A DNA stretch of 64,000 bases from a virus (taxonomy: Duplodnaviria; Heunggongvirae; Uroviricota; Caudoviricetes). Location of the stretch: IMG/VR virus record IMGVR_UViG_3300027375_000001. One strand, 5' to 3'. A model generated the notes under the pieces. The model searched no databases. It worked only from the letters and a program-made list of their open reading frames with translations, and was not told the DNA's origin. The position numbers were made by a program, and so were the translations under genes. Shown here piece after piece: positions 6,901-60,511 of this stretch. How positions within the stretch are numbered: the first letter of the stretch is position 1; each line of letters opens with the position of its first letter.

Positions 6901-8458
6901 AGGAGCGGAGAATAGCAAAGGCCATCGTTGGAATGATGTATCCGAATCAGATTGGGTTAATGTTTTCCCAGAATTCGACGCTACTGAATTTCATGACGTA
7001 CAAGATGCCAAGATATACAATGATAGATTAATTGTAATTGATCGGAATACAGATAATACAATCACGGATAGTATTAAAATATATGATTTGGATCGACTTT
7101 CGAGAAAATTAAACGATACTAATCTCGTCGGAGAAAAAGATTACGTAGGGAAGCTAGACTCCATTGCTATTAATGACGATGGAGAAATATACATAACAGA
7201 CACCGCGAATCATTGCGTATATGTCTACAGCATCGAATATAGTACTGGAACGTTTACATTTTTAAACAAAATCGGTGGTTTGGGCAATGCTCATCGCCCA
7301 TATCGATTTAACACCCCGACTGATATCCATTATAATCTAGGCAAGATATACGTGATTGACAAGAATAATGATGTCATTAAAGTTTATAATGATAAGATGC
7401 AATACTTCTATAACATTTCTCACGGGGAATGGGTAATGAAGAATAATTTAGTATCCATCACTACAGATACTGCAGCGAATGTATATGTATTAACAGCAGA
7501 TGGCCAGATATACACATTCAATAACACAGGCGAATATGTTAGCACAATATCAGGCATCGCCAATCCTTTTGCAGGCACTCCTGTTAAAATACATGCTAAT
7601 AATATTGATGATGGTATAATTTATATCGTATATAATACACACATATCCAAGATTACGTCTCAGGGGTATTATCTCGGATATTTTATGCCTTTATATACGC
7701 CATATGTAACTCAACTCAATAGCATCTGTCAGTATGGTAGAGGCGTTTATATTATCGACACCCGATCAATCTATAAAAATACAGATTTTGTTTCAATCAA
7801 GAGCATTATAAATGATATTGAAGGTGCACTATGGAAAGCTGATGATATTTTGATCGAAGAACAAGATTTGATTCAAGACTGGGTATATAATGTCGTATTT
7901 AACAGAATCAAAGATAATTTCGAATTGCTCGCCAAAAACATACATTCCAAATATGTGAGAAGCATCGATCTTGCTGGTAATATATCTATTGATATGGAAC
8001 CGATGTTGACAGCAGAACTACCGCAATTCGATTTCAGCCAATGTTTCATTGGACAAAATGAGCTTGTATTTACAGACGTTATCAATCGGGTAATTAAGCA
8101 TCTGTATGCAAATCTTGATAAACTAAGAGTATCTCTTGACACAATCATTGGATCTGATATGTGTAAAAATAGCTGGTGCTGGTCTTGGGCATCGATGGGA
8201 TCTTATGATCCAGTTAAAAAGAATTGTATCGTAAATCCAATCTCATTTATTGAATTGAGATCAGATAGTCCTGGTATTGGTGGTAGAACATGGGAACAGA
8301 TGTCATCTGTTGGTAGTGGTTGTTGCGAAGTGGTAACACTTAGCGGCACACGCATTCCAGAAATACATCAAGGTTATATGGCACTTTCTCCGAATGGGTC
8401 TGTTCTTTCCTTGGGTGGTAATTCTAGTATTTTGTCACTTTATTCTTTGTCAAGCTAA
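986..8458 (+). CDS. giant 2490-aa S/T/N/Y-rich structural protein (putative tail fibre or adhesin)
   Basis: Single uninterrupted 7.4-kb ORF with extreme Ser/Thr/Asn/Tyr/Ile content and no enzymatic motifs. Internal opposite-strand ORFs are short and look spurious. Confidence 0.5.
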   Translation: MFVEVSTLTAWPNESFRVTHSALSTTGSGPIYSIAGYTPLTIAINIDGIHNSASLNAVIVPRLTYTTGATVEAVITELAQSTLSGVPSFTIKSTTSGLYLPFNDHSTFTSRIFNKSIFTFSGTEGQQQDQLASMALTAGSAYYIIPSHLTYTDNREPSAIIASGRLDLSARLRNWEYDLFTSSTLETGQANTSPYNFAFLNYAVSPASYTPITTNQISALSAIINTPKVYRHVDVNVATTVDGASSFSNNLLSVAGASQSLGEELLPGSIVLEFSYDSPLYKDSEYTFDEIPATYGYSSGYRETLLKELSSVTVPVISSGTAFVRDIPMTGANPVSGNLVGRDPIFNEYFVNSATSVINYQTGAFALFLNTGYKLTGNALLRGFYDNKYDDFAGYPTYQVIGQSPNDHELSLIDKSVRTVGNNVFARYDVSVYNLSSIVDRNDYPTYPSTITSIKAYNYASSIQIGLNALTSFNAVSSISFSSTNTPLWLFTYTSTITSNTNTSKVNGLQMVFNTLSARTAVTSNSAFITPHIVSNYGTTILPFASSDAYYGYLQFNCLGAVTKVDNRTQTPTLSVYKIESNGQLTPYEVSMNVYDITYPYELRRSANQTYQVETSAISAQTAFLSGDLSMSLRDVALFYETDASDLYDDNKIALQLYGLNTAIKTSIFDQSISFINGGAKVFINLIQQTIKELAGVSRSSISLDDFDTEIFYKLTTTGNYFKNVQTTFNEECRAYILQSTSSSTANEFKTPIESLCAELSPVLSSLAAAGSTGNDTLSFVLTNDLFSIGKLIGSTSITAEEYNVIIDLLTKSFVFAAWPAAYDVASSLTLSNPAYLGTNLNIVKLIFSLGLETVFDLYVKAFKDTLRRGAITQTKYDEILKYYADQNYARFNYEISLIKTAIDYPTLIKGTLNPNYSSTNYISIAYYLATAEKELGTLFEYVYAFNTNANETVFNNFFRNFNLIDNKVGMLNIRYSTGNTIYDKTIGATIEPYDGRILTLNPQTHRFTSALVPLSSKFCIITPPDSPVEVDYELKMYSQVIGCQYDDITTPIKESKTYIYKSPKLGRQLQYRADPFTVYPTAAYNSMVLNFYHTTDDDATDSVRIKALPAIEDMLASSSASACSIIWNVQFLDIDGTYATTKFIPITAAAGTSNVVNMSAMPYVSFQTLPLYTNVVEYALEPTEIPNTFTRTPIVKTIASHSKTQATYANEIIIDKIGVNPITVSVSVTGASLSNYGVTNNILTGQMIYYPDLGQDNTTNLLTPQYSYSSTVVSRLSVVSYDSDIDNSLLLRNYFIKNNRIYNPPVYENTTFNVDSIRGVSLLFKCDNNGNNEQEIPLGVDNRNTAYYKVKTLMPKTLNVVAPEKDRLTIQTFHTPACIAPTQVIQLPVNYFPSQDIFYSKFNIAIAGTAGSAFYIGNIDTINTLVVLSSITQPFTAELTPLTVPQVEHGWISTSALSTTYSVASATQKLVFTSSTLSGLSAGIGTFNLSSKFTYQNGEYAILKSKPLYVYVSPQASVNELSAKVWTVNTFTNQGPSAVNTLNSITVNTQLTTVGNGHTETLVLSSFGTRYKTYAWTIGNEKEYVTNSPIASATIKGTAGTLSAISVKGYYLQLDVVPSLTALTSRADYDDNKTAYVNVKNAINLLQDRNNVIYTANSSVTSDYFKPLQFIDLATPVISAEPADVYFYSDSISSLYDAAVFTSNNKGEYVVGGTTTSYVNIRSLDTQQSITYGPIEYSLVSGFNNNTITIPDNIITDPDSYNCAVLAITSTDTIVTNAYNSVEIGKTTTSTRVDTITAIKIPTFNLFWDEDYYAIGSALTIKNYYKNTNCGGADYGLGSISITFNGQTQVYPASTETFAFNNLNDIGVYSISVSANTYGLLSSIQTTIESKYDRAINVVNAFDTFDKNARTYNEQLIFPYSLDQIYVAPNEIANANNINSSLKKLLANFDYLINKSKLNDTKLPVLFNKWLGAENSKGHRWNDVSESDWVNVFPEFDATEFHDVQDAKIYNDRLIVIDRNTDNTITDSIKIYDLDRLSRKLNDTNLVGEKDYVGKLDSIAINDDGEIYITDTANHCVYVYSIEYSTGTFTFLNKIGGLGNAHRPYRFNTPTDIHYNLGKIYVIDKNNDVIKVYNDKMQYFYNISHGEWVMKNNLVSITTDTAANVYVLTADGQIYTFNNTGEYVSTISGIANPFAGTPVKIHANNIDDGIIYIVYNTHISKITSQGYYLGYFMPLYTPYVTQLNSICQYGRGVYIIDTRSIYKNTDFVSIKSIINDIEGALWKADDILIEEQDLIQDWVYNVVFNRIKDNFELLAKNIHSKYVRSIDLAGNISIDMEPMLTAELPQFDFSQCFIGQNELVFTDVINRVIKHLYANLDKLRVSLDTIIGSDMCKNSWCWSWASMGSYDPVKKNCIVNPISFIELRSDSPGIGGRTWEQMSSVGSGCCEVVTLSGTRIPEIHQGYMALSPNGSVLSLGGNSSILSLYSLSS

Positions 8459-10667
8459 TCCATTAAGTAAATACAATTATATGGCATGTATTGTTAATTT
8501 TACGGATCTATCTTCGTTAGCGTCTTTGTCCTCATCGGCCCAGATGTTGATTTATCGTGATAATGGCCAGCCAGGGGCAGATGGATTTGGTCGAGTTACA
8601 TTGTTGAATTTAAATAATAGTCTGCCTCTATTTTCGTTAGTTAGTTCTAATTCTAGCTTTTGGGCCGGCGGGTCGCAGGCATTTGTTACGACGTATGACG
8701 AACTCATAGCAGCTAAAAACAACTCATCAATTCAGACTATAATTCTAGGCAAAGATATTTCCTTTAGCGCGCCGGGCAATCTTTCAATTCCAGCGCGATG
8801 TTCTATCATTTTTAATGGATATAAGTTCATCAGAACAGGTTTAACTATTTTGTTTATCGAGGGCGAGGTGGTAGCCCCTCGGGTGCAAATATTTAGCAAC
8901 TGGCCGGCTAGTACTATAAAAGGCACAATGAGAAATAGTGAAATATTTCCGGAGTGGTGGGGTCTACAGGGGTCTACAGTGCACGACGGTAGACATGATA
9001 TTGCAATAAATTGCGCTATTCGTACATCAGATCCGTCCTTTAGTATCGGCAGAACTATCAGCTTTGCTGCTGGTATTTATTATGTCGGAAGGCCGCTAGA
9101 TGCTACAGAATTAGCAATTCGATTTAAGGGTGCTGGTTCTAATGCTACTAAAATAATCGCATCCAAATTATGGACATCTGATACTTGGCAACCAACGACC
9201 CGATTCAGATTTTGGAGTAATTTCATGAAATACAGCGGGACTACCAACTTTACTGCTGCATGTTCTGTCCCTGGTGGCACTAAATTAATTACCCCAACCG
9301 GTGGCTCATTTGAATTTTTAAGCGGCGGCCAGGCACGCATAACAAATTCGCCACTGTATAACGGCACCCATACAGTTAGCGGTACAACAGCAGCAGTGGC
9401 ATTAACATCAATAGTTCTTTCTGGGACTACATTTGTAGGTACAACTACAGGATTCGCCACACCAATCACATTAGATACTGAAATGGAAACAGCCAGCTGT
9501 GCTTCTTCTCTATTTTGGATTGGGGGTGGAAACGGGAGCTACTGGTCTGGGGTAGCTCCGATGTCTGGTGGGGGCGGGGCGCGATACTGGAGTGGTGTAG
9601 AAGGCATGACCATCGTTGCTGCGGAGGCTACAATTAATAATCCAACTAAAAGAATTAGCGGAATTTCATGGAAACATAATGTCGAAGAGAATACTATTAT
9701 CCGTGATGTGGATATTCAGTATTTTTCCGGCATGGGAATTGGCGGCGGCATGTATGACACTTGGCGTAATGCTGGCGACGCGACGAAACAAGATGGTGGT
9801 ATTATCAATGGATTGCAAATTCAGAATTTCTGGATTAAAGAAGCAACCCGTCGTGGAGCGATACCTATCTTTATTAATAAAAATACATCAGTTTGTAATA
9901 TTAAAACTGGGACAATAGATTGTTCTACCACATCAGCAGCGCTAACTGCATCTTTCCCATACATAAGAACTTGGCCATTATTTGGAATATTAATTTATCA
10001 AGGTGACGGGGTGTCTGTGGACAGCGTCCATTTCGAGGGCATGGGCACTGGTATTCATATAGGAACAACAAACGATGGAGGTTCAATGACCAGACTTGCT
10101 TCATTGGAGAGCGAACGATTGATGGACTTTGGTGTGACTGATACAGACAGACAAGCTTTAATTCCACTGTCATCCAAGATAGTGCCTTTAGCTACACAAA
10201 TGACCCAGCAATCTTTTGGATACCTTAATCACTTATCTTCTGTTAATAATGGATTTTTCTCTGATTTAGGTTCTTACCTATTTAGATATAGTGCATTAGT
10301 TACAATCGGTACTTCATTTGAATATGCCGCATTTATCAGTACATATCCTAATAATCAGTTTTCGACTATCGATATAACTAACCTAGCAGGCTATACTCAA
10401 TATCTTTTGAGAGATTTACAATATGGCATTGATATCCCTGGGTATGGGGGTGGCGGCAGCAATTATGCGGAGTACAACAGCCGAATTTGTCGATATTCGA
10501 GAGGAATTGCATATGTTCCTGCTTCTACTGCACCTGGGGTGTATCCTCCGTCTGGATCCGGTCAAGTTTTCAATGGATATAGGCAATCAACGAGTTCAGG
10601 CACATGGATTACTAACGCCAAACCAGTAGGTTCTTGGGAGAAAACATATTACCAATTAATTTTATAA
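8394..10667 (+). CDS. Gly-rich beta-helix-like structural protein (putative tailspike or fibre); true start may lie downstream (e.g. Met near 8481)
   Basis: 757-aa ORF overlapping the end of the giant gene. Hydrophobic N-terminus, GGG-rich tracts, and repetitive NG/TG-rich segments reminiscent of right-handed beta-helices. Confidence 0.4.
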   Translation: MGLFFPWVVILVFCHFILCQANPLSKYNYMACIVNFTDLSSLASLSSSAQMLIYRDNGQPGADGFGRVTLLNLNNSLPLFSLVSSNSSFWAGGSQAFVTTYDELIAAKNNSSIQTIILGKDISFSAPGNLSIPARCSIIFNGYKFIRTGLTILFIEGEVVAPRVQIFSNWPASTIKGTMRNSEIFPEWWGLQGSTVHDGRHDIAINCAIRTSDPSFSIGRTISFAAGIYYVGRPLDATELAIRFKGAGSNATKIIASKLWTSDTWQPTTRFRFWSNFMKYSGTTNFTAACSVPGGTKLITPTGGSFEFLSGGQARITNSPLYNGTHTVSGTTAAVALTSIVLSGTTFVGTTTGFATPITLDTEMETASCASSLFWIGGGNGSYWSGVAPMSGGGGARYWSGVEGMTIVAAEATINNPTKRISGISWKHNVEENTIIRDVDIQYFSGMGIGGGMYDTWRNAGDATKQDGGIINGLQIQNFWIKEATRRGAIPIFINKNTSVCNIKTGTIDCSTTSAALTASFPYIRTWPLFGILIYQGDGVSVDSVHFEGMGTGIHIGTTNDGGSMTRLASLESERLMDFGVTDTDRQALIPLSSKIVPLATQMTQQSFGYLNHLSSVNNGFFSDLGSYLFRYSALVTIGTSFEYAAFISTYPNNQFSTIDITNLAGYTQYLLRDLQYGIDIPGYGGGGSNYAEYNSRICRYSRGIAYVPASTAPGVYPPSGSGQVFNGYRQSTSSGTWITNAKPVGSWEKTYYQLIL

Positions 10668-10968
10668 TATAGGTGGCAATAAAATAAAGACACCCGGTAA
10701 ATAGGTTATATGGGGATTGAAGAAATAGTCCGAACTGCATGGCGACATGTAGAAGCAAAGTTTAAACGGCTTTGCGATAACAATACTTGCTGCTGCGCAG
10801 GGTTATCACGGCCCATATCGGGTGAATTCAAGGGACAACTCTTCGGAGTCAATCTTGAGCCAACTCTAATAAAAGTCCCAGTATTATTAGAAAGGTGCAG
10901 AGACTAGATGGTGAGCCGACTTAGCAATACTCTATCCACGAGCGCCCGACAATCCCCATTATAATTTT

Positions 10969-11769
10969 ATGCCGACATTTAGCGAATCTATTACATCAAT
11001 TGACCCGCGCATCTGTGCAGGCAATACCCTGTCGACAATTAATCAAAATTTTGCGTTGCTTGATTACAAGCTAACCAATATTTCTCTATCGGCTGATTTA
11101 TATTGGAATGCTTTATACACAATAGCCAAAGAGACTTCCAGCACATGGGCGGATGTTGCAACTGTTGTAAAATCAAACTCTGCAAATTGGAACGATGCGT
11201 ATACCACCGTATCTTCATATAGTGCTTGTTGGTTAAGACCAATATCTCTTATTTTCCCATTGACACCAGATAATAATGCCATTAATCAAACTACATTCAT
11301 TAACAGCATTTCATCGTGGTTAAATTCTAACTTCCCTGTTACGGCTACTATTGATTCGAATACAGTAACGAATTATTGCAAAGGCCAAGAAATATTTGTC
11401 TTTACATTGGGGTTCTATAAAGATCTAGAAACAATCGCACCAGATACAAGATACCTGACAGCTAAGTGCCGAGCTGCTGTTACCTGGAGCTATCGTAGCT
11501 GCAGTATTCGAGGTCGTTGCGTAACTAATACAAGAACAGTAATCGGCCATGACCGCAATAACGTGGCAAGCAGACGCGATAATAAAGCTACAGGATTTGA
11601 TGCAGCAGGAGGCACCTCGGTATCATTATTAGCGCAAATTGCAGGTCTTGAAAATCTGAATTCATCTATAGTGAATTACATTCCAGCCGTTTACCAAAAT
11701 TACTATAAATTTGTAAACAATAGCGGATCTCGCTGGCAGTATGTTACGACCACTCCTTTAAGTAGCTAA
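10969..11769 (+). CDS. hypothetical structural protein
   Basis: 266-aa ORF immediately upstream of the next structural gene, with an AT-rich TATAAT-like upstream region. Confidence 0.35.
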   Translation: MPTFSESITSIDPRICAGNTLSTINQNFALLDYKLTNISLSADLYWNALYTIAKETSSTWADVATVVKSNSANWNDAYTTVSSYSACWLRPISLIFPLTPDNNAINQTTFINSISSWLNSNFPVTATIDSNTVTNYCKGQEIFVFTLGFYKDLETIAPDTRYLTAKCRAAVTWSYRSCSIRGRCVTNTRTVIGHDRNNVASRRDNKATGFDAAGGTSVSLLAQIAGLENLNSSIVNYIPAVYQNYYKFVNNSGSRWQYVTTTPLSS

Positions 11770-36103: not shown

Positions 36104-36178
36104 TGGCTCCTCAGGAAGGTTACGCTCCTTCATAATCCCGATTAACAGTCGGGTGCATTGCTAGTCTGCCACTGAGGA
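36104..36178 (-). tRNA. tRNA-Asn(GUU) with a non-canonical T-loop
   Basis: tcctcag/ctgagga acceptor, anticodon arm cccga-CUGUUAA-tcggg, T arm gaagg-AGCGUAA-ccttc (no TPsiC), CCA encoded. Confidence 0.45.
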
Positions 36179-36673: not shown

Positions 36674-36769
36674 TGGTACTCCTGGCCGGATTCGAACCGA
36701 CAACCGCGCCCTAATCTGGGGCATACGAAAGGTATAAGCTTTCCGCTCTACCAATTGAGCTACAGGAGC
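36674..36769 (-). tRNA. Leu-type class II-like tRNA carrying an anticodon loop CUUAUAC (anticodon UAU, AUA codon)
   Basis: gctcctg/caggagt acceptor, D arm gctc-aattggta-gagc, anticodon arm gaaag-CUUAUAC-ctttc, ~25-nt extra region (gtatgccccagattagggcgcggtt), T arm gtcgg-ttcgaat-ccggc, A73, CCA encoded. Confidence 0.4.
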
Positions 36770-36783
36770 ACATATGTTGAAAT

Positions 36784-36858
36784 TGGTTGCGGGAGATGGA
36801 CTTGCACCACCGACCTCCTGGTTATGAGCCAGTTGAGCTACTACTGCTCTATCCCGCA
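36784..36858 (-). tRNA. tRNA with anticodon CAU (Met or Ile2-type), T-loop UGCAAGU
   Basis: tgcggga/tcccgca acceptor, D arm gagc-agtagta-gctc, anticodon loop CUCAUAA, T arm ggtgg-tgcaagt-ccatc, CCA encoded. Confidence 0.55.
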
Positions 36859-37651: not shown

Positions 37652-37660
37652 ATAAATTAG

Positions 37661-37732
37661 TACCTCCGGAAGGACTTGCACCTTCACCGTGTTGCTTATG
37701 AAACAACCATTCTACTTTTGAATTACAGAGGC
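37661..37732 (-). tRNA. tRNA with anticodon CAU (second Met/Ile2-type), T-loop UGCAAGU; no encoded CCA
   Basis: gcctctg/cggaggt acceptor, anticodon arm gttgt-UUCAUAA-gcaac, T arm gaagg-tgcaagt-ccttc. Confidence 0.5.
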
Positions 37733-49852: not shown

Positions 49853-50189
49853 TGATTTCGGAAATGCAACGATATATGTCTATCATGAAGATGGGCACTA
49901 TGCCGAACGAAGTTTCTCCAGAAGAAGCTACGACACATTAACAGCACGATATGATAGGTTCCAAGGCTGGGTGTCTCCATATAGAGATATTGTATATTGG
50001 AATCGAGTCTATCGCATAGGCAATAACAGACCAACAGTGGTGCCCGACCATATCGTCGTATGGAAACAAGGGGATGCAACTGAGTATAAATACAACAAAG
50101 TTGTCATGTCGTTTGTCAATAAAATTTTGTCATGGATCCCACGAAAATGGGCAGTTCGACATAAAAGATGGCGCTGGCTTAAATGCTAA
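49839..50189 (+). CDS. hypothetical protein
   Basis: 116-aa ORF. Confidence 0.3.
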   Translation: MNPLNDFGNATIYVYHEDGHYAERSFSRRSYDTLTARYDRFQGWVSPYRDIVYWNRVYRIGNNRPTVVPDHIVVWKQGDATEYKYNKVVMSFVNKILSWIPRKWAVRHKRWRWLKC

Positions 50190-50229
50190 AATAGTTGATA
50201 CACATCACACCTCGAGCTATATTAACTAC

Positions 50230-51255
50230 ATGAAGCTCGCCTCTATTGAAACCATCGCTGCTGTCAAACATCATCCCAATGCAGATTCGTTGGATCTCGT
50301 TGGAGTTCTAGGATATGAATGCATCACTCTTAAAGACAAATATAAGGTAGGTGATCGTGTAGTCTTTATCCAGCCCGATACTGTTCTTCCAGATAAGCCC
50401 TGGGCTGAAATCTTTAAGAAAAAGTCGTCGCGAGTCAAAGCTATCAAGCTTCGAGGCGAATGGTCGTTTGGTATTATCATGGGACTTACCGAAGTAGACT
50501 CGTTATTCGATCTTCAAAATGTCGAAGTTGGTACTGAGATTAGTTCCCATATTGGGGTATATAAGTACGACCCACCTGCTCCAACCTCTCTGGATGCTAA
50601 AGGGAATCTGCCGTATAGTCTGGTGAAGACTGACGAAGAACGATTCCAGAACCTTATCGGGTTTCTCCCGTATGGTGAAAAGGTTGATGTCACCCTGAAG
50701 ATTGATGGGCAAAGTGCTACTTACTACGCACGCAAAGATCCGTCGACCGGAGAATGGTCTACTGGTGTTACTAGTCGCAATCTAGAAATCAAACCAGAAA
50801 CTAATAACAACTATACCAAGATCGTGAAGAAATACAATATTCTCGAGAAGCTTCTTGAGTATTGCAAACGGAACGACGTATCACTTGCTCTTCGAGGTGA
50901 AATCTATGGAGGCAATATCCAAAATTTCAGCAAGAACCCACACAGCAAAGGTCCCTTGGACTTTGCCGTATTCAGTGTCTTCAATCTTAATACCCTGAAG
51001 TATGAAAAGGAAGGCGACGCTGATTACTCCCCGAACGTGGCGGCTGTATTACAAATTCCTCATGTGCCGTTTGTAAACGACAATTACACTGTTGACTTTG
51101 AACACTCTGTGAGGCCGTTGCTATCCGAAGATATGATTAACTTCTACCAAAAAGGAATCAATCAAATCGATGGCAAACCCTTTGAAGGTGTAGTAGTTCG
51201 ACACAGCAAAGGTTCGTTCAAGATCATCAATCTCGATTACGACTCAAACAAATAA
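50230..51255 (+). CDS. RNA ligase with an N-terminal tRNA-binding OB (Myf-like) domain (Rnl5/DraRnl-like architecture)
   Basis: The start was moved to Met 50230. The N-terminus KHHPNADSLDLVGVLGYECITLKDKYKVGDRVVFIQPDTVLP matches the tRNA-binding OB-fold consensus (HPNADKL..V.VDvG......IVsGA.N...GD.V.VA..Ga.LP). It is followed by the nucleotidyltransferase motif I KxDG (TLKIDGQSATYYAR). Confidence 0.5.
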   Translation: MKLASIETIAAVKHHPNADSLDLVGVLGYECITLKDKYKVGDRVVFIQPDTVLPDKPWAEIFKKKSSRVKAIKLRGEWSFGIIMGLTEVDSLFDLQNVEVGTEISSHIGVYKYDPPAPTSLDAKGNLPYSLVKTDEERFQNLIGFLPYGEKVDVTLKIDGQSATYYARKDPSTGEWSTGVTSRNLEIKPETNNNYTKIVKKYNILEKLLEYCKRNDVSLALRGEIYGGNIQNFSKNPHSKGPLDFAVFSVFNLNTLKYEKEGDADYSPNVAAVLQIPHVPFVNDNYTVDFEHSVRPLLSEDMINFYQKGINQIDGKPFEGVVVRHSKGSFKIINLDYDSNK

Positions 51256-53968: not shown

Positions 53969-54394
53969 ATGACACCAACAAACGATATCGTAGAGATTGC
54001 CAAACGCATTGCAATAAAGGCTCACGAAGGGCAATTTCGGCGAGATGGTGTTACTCCTTATATTAAACATCCCGAAGCTGTTGCATCGAGACTCACAGAC
54101 AATCCAGGTGTCGAAGCAGTGGCATGGCTTCATGATGTTCTGGAAGATACGTCAGTGACAGTCGAAGATCTACGAGATCAAGGGATTTCGAACCAAATCA
54201 TCGATATCGTCATCATGTTGACAAAAAAGAAAGACATTCCATACGACGAGTATATTAAAACCATTGCGTCGAACCGATTCGCAACAGAAGTCAAAATTGC
54301 AGACATGCTAGCAAATCTTAGTGATAGCCCAACAGAGGACCAAGTACTAAAGTATATGAAATCATTGCTTTATCTTCTCGACTCAAATAAATAA
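53969..54394 (+). CDS. (p)ppGpp hydrolase HD domain (small alarmone hydrolase, SpoT/Mesh1-like)
   Basis: AHEGQFRRDGVTPYIKHPEAVA...VAWLHDVLEDTSVTVEDL matches the SpoT/RelA hydrolase H..GQ.R..G.PY..HP...A and HD..EDT blocks. Confidence 0.6.
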   Translation: MTPTNDIVEIAKRIAIKAHEGQFRRDGVTPYIKHPEAVASRLTDNPGVEAVAWLHDVLEDTSVTVEDLRDQGISNQIIDIVIMLTKKKDIPYDEYIKTIASNRFATEVKIADMLANLSDSPTEDQVLKYMKSLLYLLDSNK

Positions 54395-54412: not shown

Positions 54413-54488
54413 GGCCACGTAGTCCAATGGCAGAGGCAACGGACTTAAAATCCGTAGAGTGTCGGTTCGAGTCCGACCGTGGCTACCA
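54413..54488 (+). tRNA. class I tRNA with anticodon UAA (leucine codon UUA); exactly 76 nt with CCA
   Basis: ggccacg/cgtggct acceptor (G1.U72), anticodon arm acgga-CUUAAAA-tccgt, 5-nt variable loop agagt, T arm gtcgg-ttcgagt-ccgac, A73. The acceptor is almost identical to that of the CAA tRNA at 30947. Confidence 0.6.
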
Positions 54489-55471: not shown

Positions 55472-55978
55472 ATGCAAGCAACCACAATCAAGAGACCAAA
55501 GTTCAGCGAAGATCAAATTGATTATACTGCCCCTGATGTTCAGAGGCTCATTGGTAGGTATTGTGATTGGCTAGATGCTTGCAATGAAGGTTCTTCTGAT
55601 GAAGAATGCATCTCTGATATAAAAAAGGTTTTCGGAAGGATCTCAAGATATGGGGTATTTACTGATGATGGCTTCAGTCTGGCTAAGTACATGGAAGACC
55701 ATCTATATTTAACAGGAGATTCTAATCTAGTAGAAATCCTCGATGATGCACCAGATATTGCACGGTCACATCATCGGGCTGCTGTTCTCAAGTGGACCAC
55801 TGAAAACAATTTAATCATACCGGAAAATATTGTAGGAAGTAAGTGCATTACCAGTGGAACATATAAGGGGATGTATGTAGTAGGGATCAGGGGTGATGAA
55901 TATAAGGTAGTGTTGAACGAAAACCAAAATAAATCCGGGGGATACATTGTTGAATTTGAAAGCATCCAGTTTGAGTAA
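55472..55978 (+). CDS. hypothetical protein
   Basis: 168-aa ORF. Confidence 0.3.
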   Translation: MQATTIKRPKFSEDQIDYTAPDVQRLIGRYCDWLDACNEGSSDEECISDIKKVFGRISRYGVFTDDGFSLAKYMEDHLYLTGDSNLVEILDDAPDIARSHHRAAVLKWTTENNLIIPENIVGSKCITSGTYKGMYVVGIRGDEYKVVLNENQNKSGGYIVEFESIQFE

Positions 55979-55996: not shown

Positions 55997-56279
55997 GGGG
56001 GTGTAGCTTAAGGGTCAAAGCAGCCGACTTTAACGGGTCTTCTTATTAGAAATAGTAAGTTAGCAGAACTTAAATTCAGGGAACGCTTAACGGATAATGC
56101 CGATGCCAATCCTGAGCGAAGCCTCGAAAGAGGAACGTGCAGAGACTATAATAGTTCAATCTTACCGAGTCATGTCGAAGATTAAGGGATAGTCCAGACC
56201 ACAAACTATACAGGCGGCGAAAGCCGTAGTGGTAAGCATAATCGGTTGATTGTGGGTTCGAATCCCTCCGCCCCTACCA
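55997..56279 (+). tRNA. tRNA gene (probable anticodon CAU after splicing) interrupted by a group I intron
   Basis: 5' exon gggggtg-ta-gctt-aagggtca-aagc-a-gccga-cu| and 3' exon |cauaa-tcggt-tgatt-gtggg-ttcgaat-ccctc-cgcccct-a-cca together form a canonical cloverleaf. The middle ~207 nt carry group I core boxes. Confidence 0.6.
56030..56236 (+). other. group I self-splicing intron (ORF-less, ~207 nt) in the anticodon loop
   Basis: P-like aattcagggaac, R box gcAGAGACUAtaa (56139-56152), S box aagGGAUAGUCCag (56183-56198) with GACUA/UAGUC complementarity (P7). The intron follows U33 and ends with G (56236) before the 3' exon. Confidence 0.6.
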
Positions 56280-56353: not shown

Positions 56354-56872
56354 ATGATCGATCTGCGTAAGAACACTAAGGTGTCTATGAATAGGCAACC
56401 TTTGAAATCTTCTTCTATCTTTGCCTGTAGAGGTACTAATGTTAAATGGCCAACAATTCGCAAGGCATATCTTAATGATGCGAATGTAGATGCACTGAAA
56501 GAACATGCTACCACCAAAGGAAGATCTATTGTCTTTCTCGACGGCGAGTATATCACGAAGCTTAATAGATATGTAGGCAAGGCCCCGGAAGAAAGAGCAG
56601 TGTTCTTCGAATACATGGTTAGTGACAAGAATGTGAAAGGAGCGATATTTCTTCTCTGCTGGATTGGTAATTTCCATAATGGTTCAATAGCACACTTTGC
56701 GCCTCAATATCCTCAAATGAATTGTTGGATCGAGACAATGGGATTCGAAGCAGCGACCGCCTTTTTCGAAAAGAAAGCATTTGAATTATACAAAATCATT
56801 GTGAGTATTCTTCACGAAGGCAAACCAATCATCGACGACGAAGTTCGCAAATTTATTTTAGCAAATCAGTAA
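56354..56872 (+). CDS. hypothetical protein
   Basis: 172-aa ORF. It shares a conserved upstream element with the next gene. Confidence 0.3.
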   Translation: MIDLRKNTKVSMNRQPLKSSSIFACRGTNVKWPTIRKAYLNDANVDALKEHATTKGRSIVFLDGEYITKLNRYVGKAPEERAVFFEYMVSDKNVKGAIFLLCWIGNFHNGSIAHFAPQYPQMNCWIETMGFEAATAFFEKKAFELYKIIVSILHEGKPIIDDEVRKFILANQ

Positions 56873-58302: not shown

Positions 58303-58932
58303 ATGGAGAAGGTTATTAACGGCAATGTAATTCTTGATGAATTGGTTCTTTTTAAATTGCCGGAATTTCTCAATGGTGCTGTAGTCAATGGGATGTTTTC
58401 ATGTATAGAAAATTATCTTTATACATTAGAGAATAGCCCAAGAGTAGTACAAACATTTGATTGTTATTCAAATAGGCTTAAATCATTAAAAGGAGGCCCC
58501 GAGAAAGTAAAAGGATCCTTTGACTGCTCTTGCAACTCTCTCACTACTCTAGAAGGAGGTCCAATAGAAGTAGGGACAGATTACGATTGTGGTATTAACT
58601 CACTCGTGTCATTAGAAGGAGCCCCCGATGAAGTAGATGGGATTTTCTATTGCAATGATAATAAACTTTCTACACTAGAGGGAGCTCCTAAGAGAGTAGG
58701 TGGGGATTTCTATTGCTATAACAACAATCTCACCTCTTTGAAAGGTGCACCGAGAATAGTAAAATATTCATTTTCATGCATTGACAATCCTCTGGTTTCA
58801 TTAGAGGGCATACCATCAGAAATTGGCGAAGATTTTTATATTCCTTTGAAATTGAAAGAATTTTTCCCAGAAACAGAAATTAGGAAACGGTCGAAAATCC
58901 GAGGGTTTGTTAAATATATTAAGGACCGGTAA
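58303..58932 (+). CDS. repeat protein family member 1 (divergent founder; about six 21-aa Cys/Leu-rich repeats)
   Basis: Repeats of the form (F/Y)xCxxNxL(T/V)(S/T)LEG(A/G)PxxV.G with the family C-terminus (EIGEDFYIPLKL...IRKRSKIRG). Confidence 0.55.
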   Translation: MEKVINGNVILDELVLFKLPEFLNGAVVNGMFSCIENYLYTLENSPRVVQTFDCYSNRLKSLKGGPEKVKGSFDCSCNSLTTLEGGPIEVGTDYDCGINSLVSLEGAPDEVDGIFYCNDNKLSTLEGAPKRVGGDFYCYNNNLTSLKGAPRIVKYSFSCIDNPLVSLEGIPSEIGEDFYIPLKLKEFFPETEIRKRSKIRGFVKYIKDR

Positions 58933-58947
58933 TCCGAATATTTTTAT

Positions 58948-59448
58948 ATGTCGAAAGAAATTCATGGAAGTGTTAATGTTAGTAAATTATACATCACTAA
59001 AATACCAGACTTCATGAAAGAGGTTATGGTTGTACATGGCATGTTCCATTGCGCTTTCAACTTCCTATCCTCTCTAGAAGGTGCTCCAGAGAAAGTAGGT
59101 CGTGGTTTCTATTGCTACAACAACTCCCTCACATCCTTAGAAGGAGCCCCAGAGAAAGTAGGTGGAAATTACAACTGTACATATAACAGTCTCAAGACCC
59201 TAAATGGAGCTCCAGCCAAAGTATATGGATATTTTGATTGCTCTTATAACTCTCTCACTTCCTTAGAAGGTGCTCCAGAGGAAGTAGGAGGAAATTTCAG
59301 TTGTATTTACAATCCTCTCATTTCACTAGAAGGATTACCTAAAAAGATTGGTGAAGATCTTTATATCTCTTCTGCTAAAGGGATCTATTTCACGAAGGAG
59401 GAAATTAGAAAAGTGTCAAATATTAAAGGCAGAATCATCAATGTATAA
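58948..59448 (+). CDS. repeat protein family member 2 (about five repeats)
   Basis: FYCYNNSLTSLEGAPEKVGGNYNC... repeats. Conserved C-terminus LEGLPKKIGEDLYISSAKGIYFTKEEIRKVSNIKGR. Confidence 0.6.
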   Translation: MSKEIHGSVNVSKLYITKIPDFMKEVMVVHGMFHCAFNFLSSLEGAPEKVGRGFYCYNNSLTSLEGAPEKVGGNYNCTYNSLKTLNGAPAKVYGYFDCSYNSLTSLEGAPEEVGGNFSCIYNPLISLEGLPKKIGEDLYISSAKGIYFTKEEIRKVSNIKGRIINV

Positions 59449-59483
59449 GTTGAGATCGACTACGCCCTAAGCTATAGTATTGT

Positions 59484-59861
59484 ATGATCAAAGTGATCCA
59501 AGGAGATGTCGATCTTAGTGATTTGTACCTCGAGAAACTACCAGATTTCTTGGAAGATGTGATAGTGAAGGGTGATTTCTTTTGCGGCAACAACTCTCTC
59601 ACATCCTTAGAAGGGGCTCCAAAGAAAGTAGGTGGTAATTTCTATTGCCCCTACAACTCTTTCACATCCTTAGAAGGAGCACCGGAGAAAGTAGGTGGTA
59701 ATTTCTTTTGCCACGACAACAAACTTACATCTTTAGAAGGTTTACCTAAAGAGATTGGTAGAATTCTTTGGATCTCTTTTGCAAAAGGGATCCATTTCAC
59801 AGAAGAGGAAATCAGAAAAGTATCCAAGATCAAAGGGAGAGTTTATATCATTGAAGAATAA
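59484..59861 (+). CDS. repeat protein family member 3 (three repeats)
   Basis: Conserved N-terminus MIKVIQGDVDLSDLYLEKLPDFLEDVIVKGDFFC and C-terminus ...ISFAKGIHFTEEEIRKVSKIKGRVYIIEE. Confidence 0.65.
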   Translation: MIKVIQGDVDLSDLYLEKLPDFLEDVIVKGDFFCGNNSLTSLEGAPKKVGGNFYCPYNSFTSLEGAPEKVGGNFFCHDNKLTSLEGLPKEIGRILWISFAKGIHFTEEEIRKVSKIKGRVYIIEE

Positions 59862-59884
59862 GACGCCCTAATCTATAGTATTGT

Positions 59885-60511
59885 ATGATCAAAGTGATTC
59901 AAGAAAACGTCGATCTTAGTGCTTTGTACCTAGACCGATTGCCAGATTTCTTGGAAGATGTGATAGTGAAGGGTAATTTCCTTTGCTACAACAACTCCCT
60001 CACATCCTTGGAAGGGGCGCCAGAGAAAGTAGAAGGTCATTTCTCTTGCACCAACAACTCCCTCACTTCTCTGAAAGGGGCGCCAAAGGAAGTAGGACGT
60101 TATTTCCATTGCTACAACAACTCTCTGACTTCCCTGAAAGGAGCACCAGAGAAAGTAGGAGGCAGTTTCCATTGCTACAACAACTCTCTCACTTCCTTGG
60201 AAGGTGCTCCAGAGAAAGTAGAAGGCGATTTCTTTTGTGACCAAAACCCTCTCACTTCTCTAGAAGGGTCACCAATGGAAGTAGGTGGTGATTTCTATTG
60301 CTACAACAACTCTCTGGCTTCCCTGAAAGGTGCTCCAGAGAAAGTAGGCGGTGATTTCTCGTGCTACAACTCTCTCACTTCCTTAGAAGGCCTACCTAAA
60401 GAGATTGGTGGAAATCTTTGGATCTCTTTTGCAAAAGGAATCTATTTCACAGAAGAGGAAATTAGAAAAGTATCTAAGATCAAAGAGTATGTTTATATCC
60501 TTGAAGAATAA
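59885..60511 (+). CDS. repeat protein family member 4 (seven to eight repeats)
   Basis: Same conserved termini with 63-nt tandem coding repeats. Confidence 0.65.
   Translation: MIKVIQENVDLSALYLDRLPDFLEDVIVKGNFLCYNNSLTSLEGAPEKVEGHFSCTNNSLTSLKGAPKEVGRYFHCYNNSLTSLKGAPEKVGGSFHCYNNSLTSLEGAPEKVEGDFFCDQNPLTSLEGSPMEVGGDFYCYNNSLASLKGAPEKVGGDFSCYNSLTSLEGLPKEIGGNLWISFAKGIYFTEEEIRKVSKIKEYVYILEE

Follow-up and report, generated by a model that had tools for sequence, protein, structure and literature searches.

Group I introns in bacterial and phage tRNA genes

The junction between positions 33 and 34 of the transfer RNA (tRNA) anticodon loop is the classical site of the group I intron of cyanobacterial tRNA-fMet(CAU) genes (Biniszkiewicz 1994, Paquin 1997, cited in PMC13011429), and some of these introns carry the gene of a PD-(D/E)XK homing endonuclease, I-Ssp6803I (PMC13011429). 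Introns of the IC3 class at this same site have also been listed as 'Ile2 (CAT) 33/34' for Acidobacteriota and Bacillota_B (PMC13011429 supplement, 2026), and bacterial Ile2(CAT) IC3 introns were catalogued by tFind in 2020 too, with examples in GCA_016700075.1 (Acidobacteriota) and GCF_000018425.1 (Bacillota_B). As regards phages, all the introns known by 2014 lay in protein genes, despite the many tRNA genes that phages carry (Hausner et al., review, PMC3984707). Intervening sequences were later described in the tRNAs of Lak megaphages, introns in phage tRNAs being said not to have been reported before (Devoto et al. 2019, PMC6784885); the passages of that paper considered here term them 'enigmatic', tell in the methods of a test against Rfam and give no class. 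In this work we analyse positions 55997-56279 of a 64,000-nucleotide (nt) stretch of IMG/VR virus record IMGVR_UViG_3300027375_000001, the whole of which we call the window. With a probability that we put at about 85%, this locus is a phage tRNA(CAU) gene split at U33/C34 by a compact, 207-nt, IC3-like group I intron free of open reading frames (ORFs).

The window intron belongs to a bacterial class already catalogued, the IC3 introns of tRNA-Ile2 at 33/34, and what is new is its phage host. It shares with those introns the type of tRNA as judged from sequence, the insertion site with U at position -1, a terminal guanosine (omega-G), a 3' exon opening with CAUAA and the order of helices, as well as a near-identical J8/7-P7-P9 segment (AGUCCAGACCACAAAC...GAAA...UAGUGGUAAG) and a nearly identical ...GGUAAG/CAUAA junction. 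The bacterial introns reside in chromosomes and measure 243-252 nt, whereas the phage intron is shorter because it lacks the long P1-P2 insertion; moreover, its P5 has a CUUAAC/GAUG motif, found also in IA-type tRNA introns, in place of the bacterial CCUAA type. The P9 segment CCAGACCACAAAC...GAAA...UAGUGGUAAG is common to the window intron and bacterial IC3 tRNA introns, and the whole intron is colinear with four introns labelled IC3 (PMC13011429 supplement) and with the Anabaena tRNA-Leu intron. P2 is present and P5abc, P7.1 and P7.2 are absent, as in IC3 introns, a label given here by architecture and colinearity. The cyanobacterial tRNA-fMet introns share the site, the anticodon loop CU/CAUAA and the IC3 class, but they interrupt initiator tRNAs; the split tRNA of the window has neither a 1:72 mismatch nor three G-C pairs in the anticodon stem, and its intron holds no ORF. 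As for the Lak tRNAs, in the passages mentioned, both cases are phage tRNA genes with an intervening sequence, and that of the window is a clear group I ribozyme.

A further point of reference is the Azoarcus pre-tRNA-Ile intron, which interrupts the same kind of tRNA and likewise lacks both an ORF and a P5abc extension. Its insertion site is 36/37, on the 3' side of the anticodon, with the exon ending in CAU, and it bears GAAA tetraloops on P2 and P9, as the window intron does. By comparison, the window intron lies 5' of the anticodon, and the guides differ (GUG in Azoarcus, GGUC here) because the insertion sites do. In size the two are alike, with 205 nt in a 284-nt construct for Azoarcus (PMC13168695) and 207 in 283 here; this ribozyme is a compact relative, found in nature, of the Azoarcus model intron.

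The split gene and its predicted product

The locus is composed of a 5' exon, the group I intron and a 3' exon with encoded CCA, 283 nt altogether (Table 1). In intron mode, ARAGORN returned a split tRNA with exactly these limits and a 207-nt intron, the sole true split tRNA in the window; the default ARAGORN scan of the window did not call it. Three other intron-mode calls in the window were rejected as chimeras of adjacent tRNAs. The ligated exons, joined as GCCGACU/CAUAAUCGG, form a 76-nt tRNA(CAU) whose predicted sequence includes ...GCCGACUCAUAAUCGG... and which ARAGORN folds into a normal cloverleaf, with a 7-bp acceptor, D, anticodon and T arms, a 7-nt anticodon loop containing U33 and the T loop GUUCGAAUC. 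An initial annotation of this DNA, made by a model from the letters alone, had placed the D arm, both strands of the anticodon stem, the T arm, the acceptor and the CCA just where we find them, and had noted that the ligated loop, CUCAUAA, would be identical to that of the tRNA at 36784-36858, as it is. It had also described the acceptor as a perfect 7-bp helix, which stands for the length but not for the pairing, since G1.U72 and U6.G67 are not Watson-Crick pairs. The T stem contains a U50.U64 mismatch; this mismatch and G1.U72 recur in uninterrupted homologues from other viral contigs, so they are traits of the tRNA lineage and not signs of decay.

Uninterrupted homologues also back the exon junction. 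The 22-nt sequence predicted across it, GCAGCCGACTCATAATCGGTTG, occurs without interruption in 36 IMG/VR contigs, and the best of these tRNAs are identical to the spliced product at 69-70 of 76 positions, G1.U72 and U50.U64 included. A search with the 3' junction (TAGTGGTAAG/CATAATCG) retrieved 23 viral contigs with about nine distinct sequences. Among the interrupted homologues, a group of four loci (L073, L074, L082 and L084) aligns without gaps and is 87% identical over the whole 283 nt, and its exon changes keep or improve pairing: C-G to U-A at 28:42, G.U to A-U at 1:72, U.G to U-A at 6:67 and U.U to G.U at 50:64.

The intron matches the Rfam group I model RF00028 in E-value mode, from 56006 to 56214 and over the full model length, with 40.3 bits (E=6.4e-9 when 501 nt are searched and 8.2e-7 over the 64-kb window), the model misplacing P1 onto the tRNA D arm. 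Its P4-P7 core also matches annotated group I introns of deposited phages by blastn, including the 'group I mobile intron' of Pseudoalteromonas phage RIO-1 and the one in thyA of Bacillus phage beta22. The longest ORF of the intron in the ORF list has at most 31 codons. In a P1-P9 structure drawn by hand, 59 of 59 pairs are standard in the window, and its helices could be followed through relatives. In this line, a 45-nt P4-P5 pattern with 35 fixed bases was used as an IMG/VR query and yielded 24 contigs, and the window was aligned with five distinct IMG/VR relatives (n=6). Standard pairs fill 92.4% of the cells of this alignment, a share that falls to 30.6-43.0% with the 3' partners shifted 1-3 columns, and 27 of the 59 pairs change on both sides, values that none of 500 shuffles reached. 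The compensatory changes are located in P2, P3, P5a, P6a, P8 and P9a, with P4 and P7 invariant, a pattern that looks as expected of a functional ribozyme fold. P7, presumably the guanosine-binding helix, is invariant across all relatives and the bacterial IC3 introns. Altogether, the claim of the initial annotation that an ORF-less group I intron of about 207 nt interrupts the gene is borne out: a covariance match exists in substance, even if below the curated cut-off, the helices are confirmed by compensatory changes, and the P7 pairing it had recognized joins GACUA at 56144-56148 to UAGUC at 56190-56194.

The splice sites that had been proposed, after CU and before CAUAA, turn out to be the sole ones compatible with both a U-1.G pair in P1 and an omega-G; G56236 stands directly before CAUAA. 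All the relatives with an intron at 33/34 have GACU ahead of the intron, followed by the guide GGGUC. The P1 wobble at the splice site is seen in four of the six aligned sequences, the other two (L048 and L055) using another P1, and the ending ...GGUAAG is conserved in relatives with insertions at 33/34 and 34/35, the D-arm insertion of L055 ending in ...UAUUUG. We infer that the window intron self-splices, and the steps can be taken from the established group I pathway. P1 would arise in the precursor from the pairing of exon nucleotides G30-A31-C32-U33 with the guide GGUC, a U.G wobble marking the splice site, and the P3-P9 core would fold round the P3/P7 pseudoknot. An external guanosine would then attack after U33, and the freed 3'-OH of U33 would attack after the omega-G at 56236, joining the exons into the tRNA with loop CUCAUAA and encoded CCA.

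Identity of the tRNA

Among 5,426 E. coli genomes, the best matches to the spliced tRNA are genes that PGAP annotates as tRNA-Ile with a CAT anticodon, that is, the Ile2 type; these matches reach 78-83% over positions 8-64, and no tRNA-Met appears among the best matches listed. Moreover, its anticodon arm (G27.U43, CGACUCAUAAUCG) is the same as in the bacterial genes classed as Ile2(CAT) in PMC13011429, including those with an intron at 33/34. The split tRNA thus appears most like tRNA-Ile2. In tRNA-Ile2, the conversion of C34 to lysidine makes the tRNA a reader of AUA. This codon amounts to 14.5 per 1000 in the 45 long ORFs of the window and to about 19% of their isoleucine codons, so a reader of AUA would be useful to the phage. 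Two other CAU tRNAs are encoded in the window. The one at 36784-36858 carries A11:U24 and has its match in the four-copy tRNA-Met genes of E. coli, which we take to be initiators, and the one at 37660-37732 is a distinct, elongator-like tRNA with no E. coli match. The suggestion in the initial annotation that the split gene is a third CAU tRNA, completing a set of fMet, Met and Ile2, therefore fits the similarities found for each of them, and such a division of roles would be reasonable.

A different outcome, possible though in our opinion doubtful, is that the intron splices but that the product is an elongator tRNA-Met reading AUG and not a lysidine-modified tRNA-Ile2. The determinants of lysidine formation speak for it, and they count at the same time against the Ile2 assignment, which rests on sequence similarity. 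The E. coli enzyme TilS reportedly uses C4-G69 and C5-G68, and the acceptor of the split tRNA has G4-C69 and G5-C68 instead, with G27.U43 present. The window also encodes a tRNA called Ile(UAU), at 36674-36769, that could itself read AUA and would render an Ile2 partly redundant. In addition, the closest deposited phage homologue, in Achromobacter phage Motura (86% over 71 nt), is annotated as tRNA-Met, and ARAGORN gives the label Met as well; however, ARAGORN labels every CAU tRNA in this way, and the tRNA-Met labels that submitters put on phage tRNAs are usually based on the anticodon only. The best E. coli matches and the Ile2-type anticodon arm argue for tRNA-Ile2, and so does the presence in the window of two other CAU tRNAs, one initiator-like and one elongator-like.

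Several tRNAs of the window have features of their own. The tRNA that ARAGORN calls Ile(UAU), on the minus strand, is 96 nt long, with the loop CUUAUAC and a 25-nt variable arm (GUAUGCCCCAGAUUAGGGCGCGGUU), a type-II shape that is unusual with an isoleucine anticodon. At 36107-36178, also on the minus strand, Rfam finds a tRNA (47.9 bits) that ARAGORN misses; its loop CUGUUAA makes it a tRNA-Asn(GUU), and its T loop, GCGUAAC, is aberrant. The G1.U72 wobble is found in several of these phage tRNAs (the split one, that at 37660 and the 'Ile-UAU' one), and an unusual T loop, UGCAAGU, in both uninterrupted CAU tRNAs.

Intron activity and other readings of the locus

A number of observations weigh against a self-splicing intron of tRNA-Ile2, besides those on tRNA identity. 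The RF00028 score is below the curated gathering score of 50, and a default Rfam scan does not list the intron. Its minimum free energy (MFE) z-score, -1.46, is not significant. P1 has just 4 bp, P10 has 1-2 bp at most, and splicing is a prediction from sequence. The MFE value is unremarkable as expected, because the ribozyme is pseudoknotted and the folding method cannot predict a pseudoknot. Regarding Rfam, the seed examined in the tFind preprint (10.1101/2020.01.27.920355) contained no bacterial introns, which explains why bacterial-type tRNA introns score low.

The low score, the short P1 and weak P10, the absence of a homing endonuclease gene and the mismatch in the T stem could also be read as marks of a decayed relic that no longer splices, in which case the locus would be a tRNA pseudogene. 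This reading we consider improbable. All 59 proposed pairs are standard in the window, the strands of J8/7-P7, P4 and J6/7 are invariant over the relatives and the bacterial IC3 introns, and the compensatory substitutions in the variable helices indicate selection on structure. Furthermore, U-1, the guide GGUC and the omega-G are conserved in all the 33/34 relatives, the T-stem mismatch is present in uninterrupted homologues as well, and the Rfam score is accounted for by the composition of the seed.

Much less probable still is an ochre-suppressor-like tRNA with the anticodon UUA, which follows if the intron is placed three bases further 3' (56033-56239), as ARAGORN does with the -i option when it calls the window and the four loci L073, L074, L082 and L084 'tRNA-Stop (tta) i(37,207)'. 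Such a junction puts an A at position -1 and a U as last base of the intron and so violates both the U-1.G and the omega-G rules. ARAGORN has no model of group I splice sites, and shifts of this kind are documented (mSystems paper, PMC13011429); in relatives with the same intron that lack the UUAA start (L040 and L044) it sets the intron at position 34 and reports (cat) i(34). Since only the CAU junction is seen uninterrupted in other contigs, we rejected the UUA call, as it breaks the splice-site rules and relatives disagree with it.

Finally, that the locus is a transfer-messenger RNA (tmRNA) or some other tRNA-like structured RNA is scarcely credible, the weak Rfam tmRNA match over the acceptor and T-arm part (13.3 bits, gathering score 47) covering the tRNA-like 3' end only and skipping 312 model positions, the ARAGORN tmRNA mode (-m) returning nothing, complete D and anticodon arms, absent from tmRNAs, being present, the interior being a covariation-supported group I core and the relatives showing within 56030-56236 no conserved tag frame with a resume codon; the initial annotation, which named a better tmRNA fit as the thing to fear, was right to prefer the intron.

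Split tRNA genes in other phages and intron mobility

Our literature search, with subscription-only papers outside its coverage, brought up no phage tRNA gene described as carrying a group I intron. The remark in the initial annotation that such introns are rarely reported was, if anything, understated, given also that the 2014 review places phage introns in protein genes. Nevertheless, tRNA group I introns of the classical bacterial kind exist in phages too, inside tRNA genes of jumbo phages of Klebsiella and E. coli, of a 595-kb uncultured phage and of dozens of IMG/VR contigs. Unannotated split tRNA(CAU) genes are present in the deposited jumbo phages Klebsiella phage Muenster, OU509535 and Escherichia virus TH47, and similar unannotated split tRNAs in more than 20 IMG/VR contigs (Table 1). 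The three deposited genes resemble that of the window in encoding an Ile2-like tRNA(CAU) with an ORF-less group I intron and in sharing the 45-nt P4-P5 core pattern. Their introns differ in their site (CUCAU/intron/AA), in length (228-231 nt), in having extra helices between P7 and P3' (P7.1/P7.2, IA-like) and in scoring 90-104 bits with RF00028 as against 40.3 for the window intron. A related intron in L055 apparently lies between the D arm and the anticodon stem, an unusual site, with the exon ending in ...GGUAGACAU and restarting with AACAGACUUAAAAUCUGU.

Table 1. Parts of the split tRNA gene, with positions in the window, and related interrupted genes in other sequences
Feature	Position	Strand	Remarks
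tRNA 5' exon	55997-56029	+	tRNA positions 1-33; sequence, ARAGORN split-tRNA call, cloverleaf of spliced product
Acceptor, 5' strand	55997-56003	+	GGGGGUG, then U8A9
D arm	56006-56021	+	GCUU-AAGGGUCA-AAGC, then A26
Anticodon stem, 5' strand	56023-56027	+	GCCGA
Exon strand of P1	56026-56029	+	G30-A31-C32-U33
C32 U33	56028-56029	+	
Group I intron	56030-56236	+	207 nt; starts UUAACGGGUC, ends GUGGUAAG; omega-G at 56236; RF00028, covariation, IC3 colinearity
Internal guide sequence	56036-56039	+	GGUC, pairs with exon GACU (56026-56029) as P1; U33.G56036 wobble at 5' splice site
P2 hairpin	56042-56059	+	CUUAUUA-GAAA-UAGUAAG; both-side changes in 4/7 pairs among relatives
P3, 5' strand	56066-56070	+	GAACU; partner AGUUC 56153-56157; compensatory in 4/5 pairs
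P4	56076-56081 with 56110-56115	+	UCAGGG/UCCUGA; invariant in relatives; encloses P5 and P5a
P5 and P5a	within 56076-56115	+	GC/GC and CGG-AUAAUG-CCG; covary
P6 and P6a	56116-56138	+	GCG/CGU and CCUC-GAAA-GAGG; covariation
P7, 5' strand	56142-56148	+	G-(A)-GACUA, bulged A; partner UAGUCC 56190-56195; pseudoknot with P3
P8 hairpin	56158-56183	+	AAUCUU...AAGAUU, inner CGA/UCG stem; covariation
P9 and P9a	56198-56233	+	ACCAC/GUGGU and GCGGC-GAAA-GCCGU; P9a 4/5 pairs compensatory; then AAG with omega-G
tRNA 3' exon	56237-56279	+	tRNA positions 34-76; sequence, cloverleaf, uninterrupted homologues
Anticodon	56237-56239	+	C34 A35 U36, then A37 A38; exon opens CAUAA
Anticodon stem, 3' strand	56242-56246	+	UCGGU, then variable loop UGAUU
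T arm	56252-56268	+	GUGGG-UUCGAAU-CCCUC
Acceptor, 3' strand	56269-56275	+	CGCCCCU, then A73
Encoded CCA	56277-56279	+	
L001, OU509535.1			tRNA(CAU) gene, intron at 36/37
L002, MT708547.1 (Klebsiella phage Muenster)	about 302826-303136		split gene between annotated tRNA-Ser and tRNA-Asn; intron at 36/37
L003, MT446416.1 (Escherichia virus TH47)			tRNA(CAU) gene, intron at 36/37
L087, LR756511.1	about 408.7-409.8 kb		595-kb uncultured phage; tRNA-Leu(UAA)-like gene, intron with HNH-type ORF
L061			tRNA-Leu(UAA) gene; same intron family, guide GGGUC, after GACU at 33/34
L048			tRNA-Thr(UGU) gene; related core at 34/35
L055, IMGVR_UViG_3300048691_000182	locus position ~10380		related intron in long-arm tRNA-Leu(UAA)-like gene
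L060, L063 (IMG/VR contigs)			tmRNA-like genes; same-core-family intron in T loop, ...GACGAGGGUUUGAUU / intron / ...CCCUCCGCCUCCACCA
L043, L045			related core in protein-coding genes

The similarities of introns and exons do not agree with each other in this family. L073 and the window are 90% identical in the exons and 86% in the intron, whereas L073 and L040 are 76% identical in the exons and 92% in the intron. These values suggest horizontal movement of the intron, and of the unit formed by tRNA and intron, among phages. Neither of the flanking ORFs (55472-55978 and 56354-56872) matches a Pfam or PHROG family, which leaves no homing endonuclease candidate close by, and the intron would likely have moved through recombination or reverse splicing at sites that end in GACU. 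A tblastn comparison of 11 window ORFs with all the fetched loci revealed no synteny, the flanks of the closest homologues sharing no genes with the window, a search of IMG/VR for related loci with the upstream ORF found no relative, and these synteny searches showed no intron-less allele at an orthologous locus of a sister phage. The conflict between intron and exon similarities, and the fact that the intron recurs behind GACU in more than one tRNA, make this family a usable system for studying intron mobility without endonucleases.

There are practical consequences as well. Standard annotation misses such split tRNA genes, and the tRNA repertoires of phages are therefore under-counted, the predicted decoder of AUA being the case at hand. 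In intron mode, ARAGORN can mistake a split gene for that of a suppressor tRNA, a point of importance to work on stop-codon recoding in phages. It is tempting to go further and propose that phage tRNA genes are a sizeable and overlooked reservoir and vehicle of bacterial-type tRNA group I introns, which would move between phage tRNA genes and possibly between phage and host. We rate this idea as rather unlikely at present; if it were true, the patchy, cross-phylum distribution of bacterial tRNA introns would be explained. More speculatively, a precursor whose self-splicing depends on guanosine would tie the supply of an AUA-decoding tRNA to the state of the infected cell.

Genomic context and a second group I-like element

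The window belongs to a jumbo phage that is distantly related to Xanthomonas phage XacN1. It contains about 30 tRNA genes and genes for ribonucleotide reductase, DNA ligase and RNA ligase, and one glycosyltransferase is 42-45% identical to those of Xanthomonas phages XacN1 and Xoo-sp13 and of Stenotrophomonas phages. A megablast search with the 12 kb around the split gene against 50,697 phage records gave no match; the same locus is present on a 175,870-bp ENA metagenome contig, and the index of the assembly collection has the flanking protein in 87 blocks. The RNA ligase gene (50074-51255, plus strand; PF09414 and the OB-fold domain PHA02142) lies a few kb upstream of the split tRNA, and so does an HD-type phosphohydrolase (53969-54394, plus strand) that adjoins a tRNA-Leu(UAA) at 54413-54488. 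An RNA ligase and a phosphohydrolase close to tRNA genes may represent a context of tRNA repair.

A second group I-like element occupies positions 10710-10959 of the plus strand, between the ORFs at 8394-10667 and 10969-11769, and its parts are circularly permuted. They follow in the order P8-3', J8/7-P7', P9 (with a GCGA loop), two hairpins, P3, P4-P6, P7, P7.1, P3' and P8-5', the whole being closed by a 10-bp P8 helix. RF00028 matches this element over model positions 47-158 only, with 46.3 bits. No downstream P7' was found within 7 kb, nor a second copy in the window, a metagenome scan with the element gave chance matches only, and no natural group I ribozyme with permuted parts turned up in the literature search. 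The permuted layout is repeated in three IMG/VR contigs (L088 and L089/L090), where 99.5% of the cells are paired, against 35-41% with slid partners, and four pairs show compensatory changes. The top pair of a P1-like hairpin is U.G, C-G or U-A in these sequences, so no conserved splice-site wobble is evident. Downstream of the split tRNA, at 58303-60511 on the plus strand, there are four tandem paralogous ORFs made of NNSLTSLEGAPEKVGG-type repeats, which are leucine-rich-repeat-like.

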